Shown in pieces: positions 1 to 62,602 of a stretch of 64,000 nt of DNA. The notes under the pieces are model-generated. The model saw only the letters and a program-made list of their open reading frames with translations. It searched no databases and was not told the origin of the DNA. The first letter of the stretch is position 1; each line of letters begins with the position of its first letter. The DNA comes from Octopus vulgaris. Its lineage: Eukaryota. Both the position numbers and the translations under genes were made by a program. The DNA is taken from positions 50,716,001-50,780,000 of the forward strand of contig OX597829.1 in NCBI GenBank assembly GCA_951406725.2. The letters run 5' to 3'.

Positions 1-69
1 ATCAACTTACCTCCTCCTCTCCCTCCAGACTTCATTACTTTCTGCCTATAATAGAAAAGAATTATTAGC

Positions 70-30287: not shown

Positions 30288-30686
30288 CAGTTTGGTTTTG
30301 TGCCGGGTAGAAGCACCACTGATGCCATATTCCTGGTTTGACTACTGCAGGAGAAATACCTAGCTATAGATAAGCCCCTATACTTAGCTTTTGTGGACTT
30401 GGAGAAAGCCTTTGAAAGAGTCCCCCGATCGCTTATCTGGTGGGTGATGCGGAAACTGGAGATTAATGAATGGTTAATAAAGGCTGTACAGGCCCTGTAC
30501 AGAGAGGCCTTTAGTAAGGATAGGATTGGCAATGAGTATAGTGAAGAATTCCGGGTAGAAGTAAGGGTCCACCAAGGTTCAGCCTTCAGTCCCCTTTTAT
30601 TCATCATAGTCCTCCAGGCAATAACAGAGGAATTCAAGACGGGTTGCTCCTGGGAGCTCCTCTATGCTGATGACCTGGCCTTCTAA
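30288..30686 (+). pseudogene. RTE reverse transcriptase fragment
   Basis: QFGFVPGRSTTDAIF, DLEKAFERVP, VHQGSAFSPLLF, LLYADDL. Confidence 0.9.
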
Positions 30687-44332: not shown

Positions 44333-47273
44333 GACGATTGCTTTATCTTGAGAGATGATAGCCATCCCATCAACACACGTACCACACCCCTTTCACGTAG
44401 CACAATCACTCCGTTGATGCGCTCTTAGATGACTTTTAAGACCAACTGCTGACTGACAGGGTTTAAAACACAAGTGACAGATATTATTCAAGTGTCTTCT
44501 ATATCTTTGCCCTTTGGAATCTGATTCTGAACATATGTTTTTTGTGAACTAGCATATGTCTTATAAGTCCAGATATTGTCTAACAAGATTTTTAACATTT
44601 GGCACACATCGTAAGAGGCTGTTGGTGTCCAAGATCATTACCTATCTGGGCATTACGATTTTCATGTGATTTCATATGATTTATGTATCCTGCTTTTGAC
44701 AACAGAACATGATCACATATAATACATATCCAATGTTTACTGTTGATTACAGTTCCAATTGTTCCTTTGCGATGGGCCCTTTTAAGTTCAGAGTGCTGAA
44801 TCATCTTTTCCTCCCAAGCATTGCAACCAGTCCTAACAGTACCCCTCCACTTGTTCTGATCTAGAGCATCATTTTCCCAATCACATTTGTTCATATCTAG
44901 TTTCTTCAGGTTTTCCTTCACACTGTCTTTATACCTTTTCCTCGGCTTATGTTGTGGTCGCTTACCAGAGTTGATCTCACCATAAAAAAAGACACTTTGG
45001 TAAACGCTCATCTTTCATTCTAATAACACGTCCAGTCCATCTCTTTTGAGCCAAGATAACATGTTGTTTAATTGAGCTGCAACATGCCATGCACAAAATC
45101 TTTGACTCCTAAGATATGTCTGAGGCATTTTTGATGAAATCTCTCCAGCATTTCTATGCGATACTTATAATGGTCCGTGTTGCTCTTGAATAAACAAGTG
45201 CAGACAATACACACGCTTTAGACACTGATTTTTATCTGCAGGGAAATACCTCTATCTGCCCATACTCGCTTTTCGAGCTTTCCAAATGCAACACTCCCCT
45301 TCCCTATTTGATAGTATATCTCTGCATCAAGACCACCATCTCTAGACAGTGTGCGTCCAAGGTAAACAAAGGAGTCAATGACTTCTAACCTTGTTCCATT
45401 CACAAAAATGTTTGGTTCAGAAAATGCTTGTCCTGGCATGGGAGTAAACATTACTTTAGTTTTCCCCAAACTAATTGTGAGTCCGAAATGTACACATGCA
45501 GTGGGAAGGTTGCATCTCCACCTCTGTATGTGCCAACAAATCAGCATCATCAGCAGAAAGTAATTCTCTCACAAGTATTTTGAAAGTCTTTGCTTTGCAG
45601 CTAAACCGGGTCAAATTAAAAATATGACCAGATGTCTGGAATCTGATTCTGATTCCCCTGTTGCAATCCTTGAAAACTTACCAAAGCAATGCAGCAAAAT
45701 AAATAGAGAAAAGTGTTGGGGCAGGAATATCTCCCTCTTTGACACTGTTGTCCACCAAAAATTCGTGAGATAGCTCGCCATTAAAAATTACCTGAGCTTT
45801 CATGTTTCTGTGTAGTTCCTTAAAAATGCTCACAAAATGTGTCAGGCAACCAAGTTTACACAAAATAATCCACAGTGCCTTCCTGTTTACCATGTCAAAT
45901 GCCTTTGTTAAATCTATGAAGACCTGGTATAGTGGCATTTGTTTCATTAAGCATTTTTCTTGAACCTGCCTCACAGAAAATATCATGTCCATTGTTCTTC
46001 ACTCAGGTCAGAAACCACACTGTCCTTCAGGAATCACATGTAGACACACATTCTCAACAAGACAACCTAACATGATCCTTGAAAGTATCTTCCCAGTATG
46101 TGCCAGGAGAATTATCTCTCTAGAATTACCATACACTTTTGGGCCCTTACCCTGGTATACAGGGATTAGAATGCCATTTATCCATTCTTGTGGCACAGAA
46201 GATTCATTCCAAACTCGAGTTATTAGGTTATGAGTTTCAAATGAAATATGATTCCCATCTGCTTTCAGAATTTCAACTGGAATACCATCCAATCCAGGAG
46301 CTTTACCTGATCTCAGTTTACATAATGCCAGATTTGCTTCTTCAATGGAAGGTGTATCATCCATGTAGTGCACTTTCTCTCTCTGTGGAATATTGCTTAT
46401 GATATCCATGTTCACTACAGATAGATTGTGGAAAAGATATGCAGTGTTCTCTCAATCTATTCATTATTCCAGAAGGATCTTTAATAACCTCATTTCCATC
46501 TTTTGACTTCAAGGGAACAAATGATGATGAAAATTGCAGTCCAAAAGCTTGCCGCAATAAACTATAGAAACATTTAATGTCTTTCCTGTCATAGGCTGCC
46601 AGTACTTCCTCAGACATATTTCTCCACCATGTGTCTTTAAGCCTCCTGAGTTCTTTTTGTAAGTTAGCTTTCTGAGTTAATACAAAGTCAATCATGTGAC
46701 CTTGCTTTGATCTTGGGTGAATTCAGGTAATTTTATGCTTCATCTTATGATGAAAGAAAGTATTTCTAACAACCAGCCGCAGCTCAGAGAACCTTTGTAG
46801 CAGATGCAACTCATTGTTATTCGCTTTTCCTATTCCGTAACGCCCAAGTACATTCCAAGCACCATAGTCTATACCAACCCGTGTATTAAAGTCACCAAGC
46901 ACAACCAGCTTCTCATTCAAAAGAACTGACAGAATACTTCTTCTAAGCTCCTCATAAAATGCATCTATGTTTTCTTCACTAGCTGAAAGTATAGGAACAT
47001 AAATAGAGAAAACAGTTATGAAACATCCACAAGAAAGAGGGATTTTGAGTTTCATTATGCGTGTATTTATGCTTTGTGGTTGTTCTAGGTCTTTTAGCAA
47101 ATCACTTCTAATTGCAAACCCAACACCACCTTCCCTTTTCTCTCCCTTCAGCTTCCCAACCCAGAATAATGTGAAACCTGCTGCTCTTTCAACAAGATCA
47201 TCTTCATCTGAACATCTTTCAGAAAGAGCTGCAATATCAACATTAAGACGCTTTAGCTCCTTAGTTACTAGAG
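44333..47273 (-). mobile_element. Near full-length degenerate RTE-BovB LINE (APE endonuclease, RT, C-terminal C2H2 fingers)
   Basis: VDIAALSE, LVVLGDFNTRVG, KAPGLDGIP, FIDLTKAFDMVNR, FVYLGRTLS, CIICDHVLLSKAGYINHMKSH; multiple frameshifts. Confidence 0.92.
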
Positions 47274-56039: not shown

Positions 56040-56255
56040 GGTGGCAAACTAGCAGAATCGTTAGCATGTCAGGCAATGTTAGCATTTCGTCCTTAATTAC
56101 ATTCTGAGTTCAAATTCTGCTGAGGTCGACTTTGCCTTTCAGCCTTTTGGGAGTGATAAATTAAGTACCAGTAAAACACTGGGGGGGGGGGGGGGTTAAA
56201 TGTAATCAACTAGCCCCTCCCCACAAAATTTTAGGCCTTGTGCTTATTGTAGAAA
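56040..56255 (+). mobile_element. SINE family C (tail B)
   Basis: Family match. Confidence 0.8.
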
Positions 56256-56364
56256 ATGTTTTTAAACTGGCGTTTGGAACATAAATTAAGTGAAATTTTA
56301 ATGGAAGAAGATTTTTAGTTTGATCACTTTAACCATTTCGTTACCATATTTCTGTTGAAATACC

Positions 56365-56596: not shown

Positions 56597-56890
56597 TATT
56601 TCTGTTGAAATACCGCACTGCCTTTATTTCAAATAATGCTGATAATAACAAAGAATTTAGTAAAATAACTTTGTCATTAATGATTATTTTCCAACATAAT
56701 ATGTCAGTCCTGGTTTAGGACAAATGTTTCTGTAATTAAGCCCCACGAGACATCGTCTCCAGCTGGCTATACGACAAGATATTTGTCCTTATATTTTCAA
56801 ACAAGGAAACCTAGCACCCCAACTCAGCTCAAAAGAATATCTGTGTATCATGATTTACAGATTATTTCCCTTCATCTGCACAGAATAATA

Positions 56891-57400
56891 ATGGAAAGCA
56901 AAACAGTAACATTCAGAACATTTTCGAATGAAAATGGGAGAATAGAACACTCGCCGCAGGAAGAGATAGAGGAAATGTTGGTGGTGAATATGGGAGAAAA
57001 GATAACGTTTTTTGAAAGAGGAGGGAGATACGGAACTATAGTAGTAATGTTTCTTTCAGAAGAGGAGGCAAAAAAATCTGGCAACATGATGTTACATGGA
57101 GAGAAATGGACATTGATGCCAGACTGTTGGGGCAAAAGAATCGTCAGGGTCAGGGTGGGAAGAATCCCACTGTCAATAGACCCAGAATGAGTAACAGCTG
57201 CAACATTTAATTCAGAGCTGAGGAAGAAAGGAGAAGACCTGAGGATTGGCATAGTAAGTAGAAAACAACAATTGAATTGCCGGGGTTATGGTATTGAAAT
57301 AATCTGTGCGGTAAGCCCAAAATATTATGATGAAATGGCAGAAACTTTGGAATTACCAAACAGTGAAAAACTGGAAATAATGTAGGAGGGAGACCCCCAA
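56891..57400 (+). pseudogene. ORF1 (Gag-like) pseudogene of element 1
   Basis: KTVTFRTFSN, RGGRYGTIVVMF, WTLMPDCWGKRIVRVRVGRI, GYGIEI align to 59253-59789; in-frame TGA at 57188. Confidence 0.75.
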
Positions 57401-58123
57401 AATGCCCTAGAGCAGCAGTGGAAATGGTGGAAGAGAGTGCTCAGGAAATATAGTGGTGGAAAAAAAGCAGAAACAAAAAATAGAACATGGTGGGAATTTT
57501 GCGGAGGTAAAACCCAGGAAATGAGAGAGAAGAAAGTCTCCGACGACAATGGACTTGAAGAAGAGTAAAGGAATGGAAGAAGAAACCCAACCCATGACGA
57601 GAAACGGAGAAAATTTACCAGTGGAAGTACTAGCAAAGGAGTTAAAAGTACAGAGTCATGCAGACCAGAAACAAGACAACCCAGAATTACAGAAACCTAA
57701 AAACATAGACACACAGATGGAACACATAGAGTTACGGTCAAACAAACACACAGACACTCAAATGCACGAACACACAGACTTAGAGACGAAAATATACAAG
57801 AACACACAAAACAGTGGGGAAATTAGAAACAAAAAGAGACAACATGAAAAACACAAACAAAAAGGAAATTATAGTGAGATAGGACAACCCAACTTAAAAG
57901 GATTGCATAATTGAAAGACATTGTGAGACACAGAAGAGGTAAGTCGACATAATCTTGTAAAGACGGTTACTGAGGAGAATATTTATTTGAACTTTTAAGG
58001 AAAAAAAGGAAAACTAAGGAAATTTTGTAATGGTTGAATGAACAGGTTTCCAAAATGTTTTTAAAAAATATTGTGATACTTTGGTTAAAAAAAAAAGGAA
58101 AAAATAAGAAGTAAATCCTGTAT

Positions 58124-58509
58124 TGGAAGCACTCCGTCGGTTACGACGATGAGGGTTCCGGTTGATCCGAATCAACGGAACAGCCTGCTCGTGAAATTAA
58201 CGTGTAAGTGGCTGAGCACTCCACAGACACGTGCATCCTTAATGTAGTTCTCAGGGATATTCAGCGTGACACAGAGAGTGACAAGGCCGGCCCTTTGAAA
58301 TACAGGTACAACAGAAACAGGAAGTAAGAGTGAGAGGAAGTTGCGGTGAAACAGTACAGCAGGGATCACCACCATCCCTTACCGGACCCTCGTAGAGCTT
58401 TTAGGTGTTTTCGCTCAATAAACACTCACAACGTCCGGTCTGGGAATCGAAACCGCGATCCTATGACCGCGAGTCCACTGCCCAAACCACTGGGCCATTG
58501 CGCCTCCAC
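58124..58509 (-). mobile_element. SINE family A (A2) inside element 1
   Basis: TSD aaatcctgtat at 58113-58123 and 58510-58520. Confidence 0.92.
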
Positions 58510-59059
58510 AAATCCTGTATGAACAATTGTTTAAAAGGTGAGTACTTGTAAGGCAAAAGCGAAAAGGGAAGTCGCGGTTTTGCCTTGGAGCGAGGCTAGA
58601 GGTTGTGTAAAAAGTTTAAGTGAAAAGGAATCCATGGTTTCATCTTGCAGTGGGAGCAAAATGGCCATCTCATTTGCATTGTAATTTTATTCATTTCGCA
58701 TTCATCCTTCATGTGTTTTCTGTTCCTGCATGTCTTTGTATGTCCCCTCTGTAATTAGGCCTTGTGCCTGTAATAAAGAATCAAGCTAGCAAGGCCACGT
58801 CTTTTCCTTCTGTGACACATTGTTGTCTTCAGTTTATTATCTGCAGTATGTGAGTTCGTTTTCTGTTCTGTTTATTGTAAATTTGTGTTATTTGAAGTGA
58901 AATATTTTAAATGAAATTGAACTGTTGTCCTTTGGAAAATGGTAATTTTCGCCCTGTGGGGTTGAAAAATTTCTGTAAATTTTGTGAACTGGGATTTTTT
59001 ACGAAAATATTTTCTGGAAATTTTCTTGTCATTTGTGACAAGTGTGAAGAAACGAAGTT

Positions 59060-59789
59060 ATGGAGACCCAACAAGCCATCAGCTATACTGCAGCAACGGA
59101 AAGAAGTTTGAATAACATGTTGCAGGTTAAAGAAGTGAAATTCAACGAGAGGAAATTGAAAAAGGCAAATGAACTTACAGTTACAGAAGGAAATAGCTTG
59201 AGGCTGACCCCACCAAAAGAGATAATGGAGGAACCAGCAAAAAAAAACTGTTGTGTATAGAACGCTATCAAACTCAAGTAAAAGGGTGGAAATAGCGACC
59301 GTTGAAGCAATGGAAGAATGTCTTAAGGACATTAAGCACCTAACGACAAACTACACCAGAGGCAAGAAGTATGGCACAGTGGAGGTACAGTTTGCGACCA
59401 AACAGGATGCAATAAAGTGCTCCACTGTGCCATTGAGGTTGGAAGAGTGGGCACTACTGCCAACCTACTGTGGCAAACATGCAGCCAGAATTAGGATTGG
59501 CAGAGTGACCCCAGAAATCGATGAAACGTGGCTAGTGGCAGCCATCCTCTTCAACAGGGAGGAGGAGACCAATGTGCCAATGGAGGTAAACTGGCTTGGA
59601 TATGGCCTTGAGGTGATGGTTCAAATCAGTTTGCCAGACCTGCATAAGATTGTAGACAAAATTATGTTGCCAGAGGATGTTAAACTTAGAGTGGTAGTAG
59701 AGGGAAGACCTTCCATCTGCTACCACTGTGGAGGACGGGGACACATGCAAGCAAGGTGTCCCCAGAAACAAGAAGTAGAACAGGAGTAG
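59060..59789 (+). pseudogene. ORF1 (Gag-like, CCHC zinc knuckle) of element 2
   Basis: EGRPSICYHCGGRGHMQARC fits CX2CX4HX4C; frameshift in the A-run near 59240 restores KTVVYRTLSN. Confidence 0.85.
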
Positions 59790-60215
59790 CAGGAGGAGGA
59801 GGTGGAACAAGGTGTGGTAGCAAAAAGGCCAAGTAAGTGAAGAGATGGAAAACGTAGAAGGAAAATATTCGGTTGGAAAAAGAAAGAAGAAAAGAGATGA
59901 AAATGCATATTTACCACCAAAAAAGGCCACAAAAAAAGAGAGAAAAGGCAATTTAGAGGAGATACAAATTGGAAGAACAGAAATAACGAAAAAGGGAATT
60001 ACAGAAGAAAAGACAAGTAAGCAGAAAGGAAAGGAAGCAAGAATAAAGAGTAAGATAGATAGAGATGGTTGAGACACAAAAACCAGGGGCACCGGGAGAG
60101 AATTGAGATGGAAAATGGAAAGGAGTATCCAAAGGAAAAAATGTGAGGATGATGGTAGAATATAAAAAGAGCGTATAAATAGAGAAACGGATAACTAAAA
60201 TGAAAAATGTAATCA

Positions 60216-60632
60216 GAGGTGCAAGAGTGGCTGTGTGGTAAGTAGCTTGTTTACCAGCCACATGGTTCCAGGTTCAGTCCCACTGCGTGTCACCTTGGGC
60301 AAGTGTCTTCTAATATAGCCTCGGGCCGACCAAAGCCTTGTGAGTGGATTTGGGAGACGGAAACTGAAAGAAGCCCGTCGTATATATGTGTATATATATA
60401 TATATATGCGTGTGTGTGTTTGTGTGTCTGTGTTTGTCCCCCTAGCATTGCTTGACAACTGATGCTGGTGTGTTTATGTCCCCGTTACTTAGCGGTTCGG
60501 CAAAAGGGACCGATAGAATAATTACCGGGCTTACAAAAGAATAAGTCCCAGGGTCGAGTTGCTCGACTAAAGGCGGTGCTCCAGCATGGCTGCAGTCAAA
60601 TGACTGAAACAAGTAAAAGAGTAAAAGAGAGT
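60216..60632 (+). mobile_element. SINE family B inside element 2
   Basis: Family match. Confidence 0.9.
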
Positions 60633-60877
60633 AAAATTGTCAGGGAGTGAGGCTAATGAAGACGACAGGGTAGTTTTGATAGAGAGAGAGAAAATAGAAA
60701 GACTAAAAGAAATAATTGGCAAACAAACTGTATTATCGGAGTTGTGGGTTCGATGCGACGAAGTACCACCAGTTGTGCCATTTGAAGACATAGTGGAGTA
60801 CATAGTCAAATGAAAAGAAGTGAAATTAATAAAATTAAAATTATGTTTTAAAAAAAGAACAATGAACTGTTCATGAA

Positions 60878-61280
60878 TATCATCATCATCATCATCATCG
60901 TTTAACGTCCGCTTTCCATGCTAGCATGGGTTGGACGGTTCGACCAGGGATCTGGGAAGCCAGAAGGCTGCACCAGGCTCCAGTCTGATCTGGCAGTGTT
61001 TCTACAGCTGGATGCCCTTCCTAACGCCAACCACTCCGTGAGTGTAGTGGGTGTTTTTTACGTGCCACCTGCACTGGTGCCAGGCGAGGCTGGCATCGGC
61101 CACAATCAGATTGGTGCTTTTTACATGCCACTGACACGGAAGCCAGTCGAGGCGGCGCTGGCATCGGCCACGATTCGGATAGTGCTTTTTGCGTATCTCC
61201 TGTCCAGGGGTCCTGGCATCTGCCGGGTGCCAGTCATAGGATTGGTTCAATTTCGATTCCGATTTCACTTGCCCCAACAG
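60878..61280 (-). mobile_element. RTE 3'UTR fragment inside element 2
   Basis: Family motif and (CAT)n. Confidence 0.85.
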
Positions 61281-61474
61281 GGGATATGTGTTGCATAAAC
61301 AGTTAAGTGACACTGTTTCTGTGTGTGGGATGCAAGTAAGACATTTCATTTTTCTCATTATATCACTATATTTATTCGATTTTTGTTTTATGTACCCCAC
61401 TGTATTGTGTTGCCTGTCTTTGTCCGTCCCTTCTTTGTAAGAGCTATATGCTCATAGTAAAGAATAAATCTAGC

Positions 61475-61538
61475 AAGCCATGCTACTCCAGACTGATGAT
61501 GGGCAATGACTCTGAAACTAGTCTCTGGTTGCTGGCTT
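61475..61538 (+). ncRNA. Type I hammerhead ribozyme with canonical core and extended stem I
   Basis: CCAGA-CTGATGA-tGGGcaatgaCTCt-GAAA-CTAG-TC-TCTGG; predicted GUC cleavage after 61523; aagcca/tggctt extends stem I. Confidence 0.7.
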
Positions 61539-62602
61539 TGCTGGGTGGAGGTGCTTATCTCCCCCTTTGAAAACATAAGGACACAGGAAATGTGTCAAGG
61601 CCGACAGGAAGCGGTGCTTCCTAGGGCTAAATAACAGTAGTATTATTCCCTTTCATGGGACTGTCACATTAAGTTGACAACATACCACCACTTTTCAGGA
61701 TATTTCTGTTGAAATTCACTAATTTTGTTTCAATTAATATTGAAAATAATGAAGGATTCAGTAAAATAACTTTGTCGTTATTAAACAGAAGTTCGGAACA
61801 TAAAGTAACACAAAATTTTGATGGAAGTTTCTAATTTAGACCACTTTAAACAGAGAGCTTGTGTCATAAAACTTAGCAGTAGTCTCTGACAGGTCTGATT
61901 TGTGTACTTGGAATTTAAGTTAACATGAAGTTTTGCTGGAAGGTTTGTAATTTAGATCATTTCAAAGCATAAAGTTTGCAACAGGAACCAGCAACAATCT
62001 CTGGTGGTTTTGCTACCAAAATGGTTAAAAAGCCACATTTGAGTACTTGTGGTTGGTTTCTCTTTCACATCAAAAGATCTGTAACAGCAATCCACATTAA
62101 CTAAATAGAATGTTGGGAACACAGTTAGGATCTTTTTCGCAACAGCCTATAATCCAGGATAAAGATTTGTAATTCAGTGGTGCAACCAATAATATTCTGA
62201 AATTGGAGATTCGATTTTTCATTGATTTTTAATTCAAGCAATTCTTGTAATCACTTGAAAAACAAAATAAGAAATTTTGAAAGAAGTTTCTATAAAATTA
62301 ATTTCTATACATAGAATGGCTATGAGGGTCTACCAGAATGAAATAGTAATCAAAGGGATTCATAAATAGAAAATGTTTGAAACCCCCTGCTTTAAATGTA
62401 TGTATCGCAAGAAACAGCTAGGTTTCTTTCTCTAACATTTTACATAATTCAACCTACACAAGTTAATGTGTGAAAAGCAAAATAGGAAATTTTGAAAGAA
62501 GATAAAACTAGTATTTAAACATAGAATGGCTATAGAGGTGTGTGTGCGTGCATGTGTGTGTGTGTGTGTGCGTGTGTTCACATCTGTGTATGTATGTATG
62601 TA

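Follow-up and report, generated by a model that had tools for sequence, protein, structure and literature searches.

Insertion of an octopus LINE and its ORF1-only relatives at a fixed distance from a putative snRNA-type promoter motif in hammerhead retrozymes and snRNA genes

A 64,000-nucleotide stretch of the Octopus vulgaris genome (contig OX597829.1, positions 50,716,001 to 50,780,000; hereafter the window) contains two diverged retroelements, elements 1 and 2, stacked in front of a hammerhead-bearing repeat. Their families recur at the same point of such repeats, known as retrozymes, as does an autonomous long interspersed element (LINE) that also enters U1 and U2 small nuclear RNA (snRNA) genes. 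With a probability of roughly 0.7, we propose that this L1-type LINE and its derivatives, which carry only open reading frame 1 (ORF1), enter their targets at one fixed position, ~59 bases 3′ of a motif common to snRNA genes and retrozymes, and that they are likely directed there by an snRNA-type promoter with a proximal sequence element (PSE). Judged from sequence, the insertion base coincides with nucleotide +1 in U1 and U2 genes and with the predicted +1 in retrozymes. We consider the promoter, rather than the ribozyme, to be the probable target, because U1 and U2 genes, which have no hammerhead, are entered, and because the distance from the junction to the promoter motif is constant, whereas that to the hammerhead core varies.

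In the window, the tail of element 1 (AATAAAGAATCA) ends at 58783 and that of element 2 (AGTAAAGAATAA) at 61467. A previous sequence-only reading of the window had noticed that both AATAAA-type tails are followed by the same motif, (A)GCTAGCAAG(G)CCA, which we find at 58784/58786 and 61468/61470. This tail/target junction recurs genome-wide far above chance, with 0 matches to reversed-pattern controls. We surveyed 3′ junctions in the 30 best loci per family, including the query locus and classified by eye; some of these loci share one stack or duplication. The 3′ flank was a retrozyme start, a U2 start or the leader of a stacked element in 29/30 loci of family 1 (that of element 1), 20/30 of family 2 (that of element 2) and 27/30 of the autonomous LINE, which bears out the proposal of target-specific non-LTR (non-long terminal repeat) elements that stack at one position of a hammerhead-bearing repeat. 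Family 1 copies ended directly at the hammerhead repeat (18), at a leader and the next element (10), at the target via a local duplication (1) or at another flank (1); for family 2, 12 loci were direct, eight had a leader and the next element, and ten had other flanks. The autonomous LINE ended at retrozymes of families A–E in 22 loci, at U2 in three and at leaders in two; two copies were without tail and one was unclear.

All insertions are in sense orientation and at one base. U2 and U1 genes are entered exactly at nucleotide +1, although only one of the two pattern matches that join the tail to U1 +1 is real, and the filled U2 genes retain their native promoter and 3′ flank inside U2 clusters. 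At the 5′ ends of 90 loci, the element lies behind a retrozyme or U2 promoter in 58, behind the tail of another element in 28, and is truncated or adjoins unrelated sequence in 4. Target duplications measure 14–17 bp (~14 bp in paired junctions), and at locus L345 the duplication has a private base on both sides.

Another tail, the third found at this insertion site, pointed us to the autonomous LINE, an endonuclease- and reverse transcriptase-bearing relative of the kind that had been anticipated, with ORF1 and ORF2. One copy (L148) has an open ORF2 of 1128 amino acids with the Pfam domains Exo_endo_phos (endonuclease, EN), RVT_1 (reverse transcriptase, RT) and zf-RVT; ORF1 of the LINE has a CCHC knuckle. 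The best match of ORF2 among solved structures in the PDB is human L1 ORF2 (E 1e-62, versus 1e-25 for R2), and its nearest named relative is from Argonauta. The apurinic/apyrimidinic (APE)-type endonuclease, RT, C-terminal zinc-binding domain, upstream ORF1, target duplications and 5′ truncations all indicate an L1-group non-LTR retrotransposon. A preference for repeated target sequence is a trait it has in common with Tx1-type elements; no labelled Tx1 reference was present among 120 homologues, 10 clusters or the atlas names.

The families of both window elements comprise multiple copies of ~1.7 kb, often stacked and with a LINE-like tail. ORF1 of the element 1 family (L130) is 23% identical to that of the autonomous LINE (blastp, E 1e-12), and ORF1 of element 2 is 30% identical (blastp, E 9e-27). 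A search for an ORF2 match at 56.7–61.5 kb returned none. Having an ORF1 homologous to that of the LINE and no ORF2, the window elements class as half-L1 (HAL1)-like. Loci L349, L354, L356 and L391 hold at least one further ORF1-only family in the same stacks, as well as further target starts, namely those of a retrozyme family G and a leader of unassigned origin.

The hammerhead that the sequence-only reading placed in the window stands as a type I-like core (stem I 61488-92/61524-28, CTGATGA at 61493-99, GAAA at 61514-17, and GUC) with a predicted cut, and sits inside a long stem (z −2.3). Its stem III has just 2 bp and a palindromic loop; in Rfam, none of the hammerhead models reached the gathering score anywhere in the window, and none had E ≤ 10 in 61300–61800. 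A first look at the genome yielded 1692 candidates for this hammerhead stretch. The target of family A is a ~345-nt monomer in partial tandems, often with an inverted 5′ piece, and retrozyme dimers are spaced 354 and 358 nt. By its build (a non-coding monomer of 170–400 nt with a type I hammerhead, in complete or partial tandems), we class the target as a non-LTR retrozyme. At least five diverged retrozyme families were entered; they are homologous and differ strongly around the insertion site. The expected empty sites exist, with 48 exact family A matches genome-wide.

Upstream of the 30 best hammerhead loci we found a native arm ending in gataggcatcgacag (22), an element tail (5) or an inverted retrozyme piece (3). 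The native arm completes a long hairpin and pairs at −15.5 to −30.8 kcal/mol in 14 empty alleles. An empty allele with a long stem is therefore real, but it is not the one drawn previously. The sequence gagacatcgtctccag, taken before as the target's own 5′ side, lies upstream in 0/30 of these loci and belongs to an antisense family B retrozyme. We rejected the long stem I that had been restored in the window from this flank, because the native 5′ arm differs and because 13% of 2000 random 36-mers from the window pair at least as well as the drawn flank (−18.4 kcal/mol).

The motif ATCAGT is common to all entered targets. It is found at −55 to −61 in 27/30 U1, 27/30 U2, 20/26 U5 and 4/6 U4 loci, and because of this position and its conservation before four snRNA types we regard it as a candidate cephalopod PSE. 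A conserved element ~60 bp upstream of the start and common to snRNA genes is thus present, as in an snRNA-type promoter, and retrozymes may start transcription at the insertion base. The spacing was assessed with a promoter matrix trained only on U1 and U2 (35 distinct promoter strings in 7 clusters) and applied to the 58 5′ junctions behind a promoter, the remaining 32 of the 90 being left out. The best matrix site had a median position of −59 in each of 7 target classes and fell within −62 to −54 in 48/58 junctions, compared with 6.8% of 5000 random positions. The distance from the insertion site to the hammerhead core takes values of 25, 26 and 32 nt: it is 25–26 nt in four families and 32 nt or more in families D and G.

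Several observations weigh against direction by the promoter. The 58 junctions represent about six related retrozyme families and U2 and are non-independent, so that the effective number of classes is about seven and the P value is overstated; 10/58 lie outside the −62 to −54 interval. The +1 of the retrozymes is predicted, and in the 58 junctions its place was judged by eye on the basis of the leaders. Alleles with an altered spacer keep the junction base, as local sequence recognition or later indels predict. No insertion was seen in 26 U5 loci, 6 U4 genes (of 20 loci) or the 30 best U1 loci, though these bear the motif, and ATCAGT is absent before 20/20 U6 loci, in which there was likewise no insertion. 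Ten of the 30 family 2 loci, seven of them from a diverged subgroup, end in other flanks without Rfam match, as do most of 9 further distant copies. On the LINE tree, copies with the same target label also tend to group together (14 changes versus 26 when shuffled), and the family D insertions described below come from another subfamily than most family A ones, which weakens that control. In the diverged family 2 subgroup (L080, L083, L085–L089, L361–L377), the other flanks recur as groups of two or three similar sequences.

The usual explanation for target-specific animal LINEs is that their endonuclease recognises a sequence. Applied here, the endonuclease of each subfamily would read the bases at the cut site, aided by RNA ends that derive from the target and anneal; the constant promoter distance would be a by-product of targets that are homologous or start alike. 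The clustering of subfamilies by target, the homology of the retrozyme families and the junction base kept in altered-spacer alleles agree with such a scheme, as does the description of Tx1 target choice as mainly endonuclease-set in the available text of PMC4494074. The young-clade targets, U2 and the retrozymes E and E2, moreover share TTY^ATCG-N6-GG at the cut site. However, this motif is expected 4e4–1e5 times in the genome, including inside the LINE's own EN sequence, against 2351 retrozyme E candidates, and all 21 copies of the youngest tree clade terminate at the start of a retrozyme or of U2, or at a leader from one of these. The shared motif is too common and therefore cannot explain the specificity. 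LINEs in U2 and in retrozyme E are 99.6–99.9% identical over 1.8 kb, with 229–231 of 232 EN residues identical; the element 1 family alone enters A, B and C starts; and U1, U2 and the retrozymes have little in common around +1 beyond pyrimidine-A. Family D has 6 extra bases. Of 8 pattern matches in it, 7 proved to be true junctions, placed at ATCTTC, −58/−59 from the motif; the AGCTAG that resembles the family A site and lies 6 nt beyond is never entered (0 junctions). Family A is entered at AGCTAG nine times (exact matches) and at ATCGAC at most once (unverified; control 1). Taken together, recognition of the local sequence appears unlikely, though it is the strongest of the alternatives.

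Promoter-complex targeting is known for RNA polymerase (Pol) III genes in yeast and Dictyostelium. In the octopus, the LINE ribonucleoprotein would be brought to PSE-bound promoters, and a tether via SNAPc or the assembled initiation complex seems preferable to direct reading of PSE DNA by about 60:40. The APE endonuclease would then nick at +1 on the bottom strand and near +14 on the top one, as in standard target-primed reverse transcription, giving rise to the duplication. Reverse transcription would copy the element RNA, the new copy would be driven by the captured promoter, and later copies would stack. ORF1-only families would use ORF2 of the LINE in trans. Each subfamily may be biased to targets with similar first bases because its RNA leader is homologous to the overhang of such targets. 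The main host would be the retrozymes, with their thousands of dispensable copies.

The leaders are of interest here. Four U2-associated 5′ ends consist of U2 +1..14, then a 14-nt leader one base off the retrozyme E2 start, then the LINE; E2-resident copies branch just outside the U2 copies in the LINE tree, and the 5′ leader of L360 is unlike its own target. Such foreign leaders would be expected if transcription of the donor began at +1 under the promoter upstream of it. The full picture of an animal LINE tethered to SNAPc or the snRNA initiation complex, inserting at +1 of any PSE-driven unit without a promoter of its own, and living mainly on thousands of retrozymes with U1 and U2 as occasional hosts, is put forward tentatively, at slightly less than even odds.

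The +1 position and the many unlike targets could also be accounted for without a new protein contact, if DNA is opened or exposed at highly active snRNA-type starts (as a melted bubble, R-loop or nucleosome-free gap) and the endonuclease adds a weak preference. The uniform sense orientation at one base speaks against this, as does the lack of any sampled core-family copy at an evident tRNA, U6 or mRNA start (mRNA starts were not tested explicitly), and we consider such untethered insertion improbable. A further alternative, in line with the sequence-only reading, is that the element recognises the hammerhead itself or the long stem, in the form of a DNA hairpin or of RNA. Most targets are indeed hammerhead repeats, the site lies inside a long predicted hairpin in empty A alleles, and the core distance is the same to within a base in four families. 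This explanation is contradicted by the U1 and U2 insertions, by the larger core distance in families D and G and by the restored window stem, which is not real; the ribozyme is thus probably the wrong cue, and we give its recognition very little credence. Equally implausible is template jumping, in which an RT that copies retrozyme or snRNA to its 5′ end jumps to the 3′ end of LINE RNA: it predicts joints exactly at RNA 5′ ends without DNA targeting, fits the inverted retrozyme pieces that adjoin truncated elements (in the window and in L004, L064, L081 and L102) in composites at times re-copied by Penelope-like machinery, and may hold for some truncated copies, but for full-length ones it is contradicted by the untranscribed promoter and target duplication retained at the 58 5′ junctions, the private base of L345 and the cluster flanks kept by filled U2 genes.

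Among known systems, Keno (Tx1 clade) and Utopia are U2-targeting non-LTR elements with tandem copies, Keno having an APE endonuclease, and their 3′ flank starts at U2 nucleotide 39 (PMC4640811, in part). Identity with Keno was rejected on this ground: the 3′ flank of the octopus LINE starts at U2 +1, and U1 genes and retrozymes are further targets of this LINE. Position relative to a small-RNA promoter is likewise set in Ty3, which inserts 1–4 bp from the start, and in the Dictyostelium TRE5/NLTR-A elements, TRE5 being L1-type with an ORF1 that binds TFIIIB (PMC5911963, in part). Those systems use Pol III tRNA or 5S promoters and insert upstream, TRE5 in antisense, whereas the octopus LINE, as known from sequence alone, enters PSE-type genes in sense at +1. 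Tx1L/Tx1D, Tx1-Mar and SINEU are comparable as LINEs that target other mobile elements, some Tx1-Mar having U1/U2-derived heads; their targets are DNA transposons, and the sections available of PMC4494074 report no promoter-distance rule, while its tree legend names Tx1 targets 'Sat' and 'U5' without positions. HAL1 is also a non-autonomous ORF1-only derivative, but of mammalian L1 origin and with no target specificity noted in the accessible part of PMC5753468; the octopus has several independent ORF1-only families with one target.

Non-LTR retrozymes have been described with ~345–355-nt monomers, type I hammerheads, partial tandems and inverted 5′ pieces (PMC7229834; bioRxiv 10.64898/2026.07.22.740005; PMC8557442; all in part), and newt satellite 2 is a hammerhead repeat with an snRNA-type promoter (PMC2220036, citing Coats 1994, second-hand). 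The portion of the retrozyme literature searched mentions no LINE that targets them. More broadly, our partial literature search found no description of a LINE targeting retrozymes or PSE start sites, nor of a promoter-start targeting rule for animal LINEs; Repbase reports and the 'Sat' and 'U5' Tx1 families were outside this search, and a prior description is possible. If correct, the proposal would bring snRNA-type Pol II promoters of an animal into the range of promoter-complex targeting and link such targeting to promoter capture. It supplies a candidate cephalopod PSE and genomic evidence for an snRNA-type promoter in invertebrate retrozymes, as reported for newt satellite 2, and predicts their start base. 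The open ORF2 of L148 makes the targeting idea testable. Should the tethering reading be true, the LINE would parasitize the promoter of another parasite, and it would be a natural insertion tool with single-base placement and flexibility in sequence.

The layout of the window is given in Table 1. The antisense family B fragment, ~84% identical to its family, adjoins element 1, whose ORF1 is decayed and interrupted by stops and frameshifts. The spacer between stacked elements varies with the target family (A, B, C, D, E, U2). Element 2 would have entered the A retrozyme first, element 1 would then have stacked in front, and the inverted B fragment would last have replaced the promoter and 5′ end. 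Penelope-type copying appears to carry LINE fragments along, with composites sometimes re-copied with 5′ inversions, which fits the window, although the inverted piece there is of family B and the downstream target of family A.

Table 1. Features of the retroelement stack in the window (window coordinates).
Feature	Position	Strand	Remarks
Antisense fragment of retrozyme family B	56678..56889	-	Degraded hammerhead core and downstream part; holds the 'left flank' of the sequence-only reading; aligns over 219 nt to L043/L044/L104
Element 1, ORF1-only (HAL1-like) non-autonomous LINE	56884..58783	+	5′-truncated by 256 nt; AATAAA tail
Short interspersed element (SINE)-like repeat within element 1	58124..58509	-	11-bp target duplication AAATCCTGTAT at 58113-58123 and 58510-58520; inverted pair
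Target-derived spacer between stacked elements	58784..58799	+	Duplication of retrozyme A +1..+16
Element 2, full-length ORF1-only non-autonomous LINE	58800..61467	+	Carries two later insertions; ORF1 decayed
Longest open piece of element 2 ORF1	59226..59789	+	CCHC zinc knuckle (PF00098, E 3e-4, over cut-off)
Common SINE-like repeat within element 2	60219..60627	+	Inserted
Second common repeat within element 2	60880..61283	unassigned	Boundaries approximate
Downstream part of family A retrozyme, from predicted +1	61468..61694	+	Promoter half absent at this locus
Minimal type I hammerhead motif	61488..61528	+	Predicted cut after 61523

The inverted 5′ pieces and TA-repeat ends of retrozymes are Penelope-like; in 30 loci of one abundant Penelope-like family, the only such family searched, no pseudo-long terminal repeat matched the retrozymes. 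A young retrozyme E family (L311–L340; 2351 candidates) shows UUGA as a variant of the core, and its members frequently end in TA repeats, which resemble those of the abundant Penelope-like family of L459–L488. In L004, L064, L081 and L102, inverted retrozyme pieces adjoin 5′-truncated elements, twice with the LINE tail included. In the U1 promoter of L209, the 13 bases immediately preceding +1 are almost the same as a segment of the promoter of retrozyme A, which raises the question of whether retrozyme promoters were captured from an snRNA gene. At L452:1380-1560, a variant U6 lies directly 3′ of an apparent retrozyme 3′ part; this variant also occurs as a tandem cluster (L447–L451) with a TATA-like box.

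Elsewhere in the window, 80%-identical pieces of another common repeat (56597-56679 and 61700-61780) flank the whole composite and resemble an ~80-bp duplication, two independent copies being also possible. The 3′ end of a common SINE (56231-56257) is 78% alike to the last 27 nt of element 1 (58755-58781), which hints that the two share a tail and that the SINE may have a LINE as its partner. Weak RT-like fragments of other retroelements are present at ~45732-46304 (−) and 30300-30578 (+).

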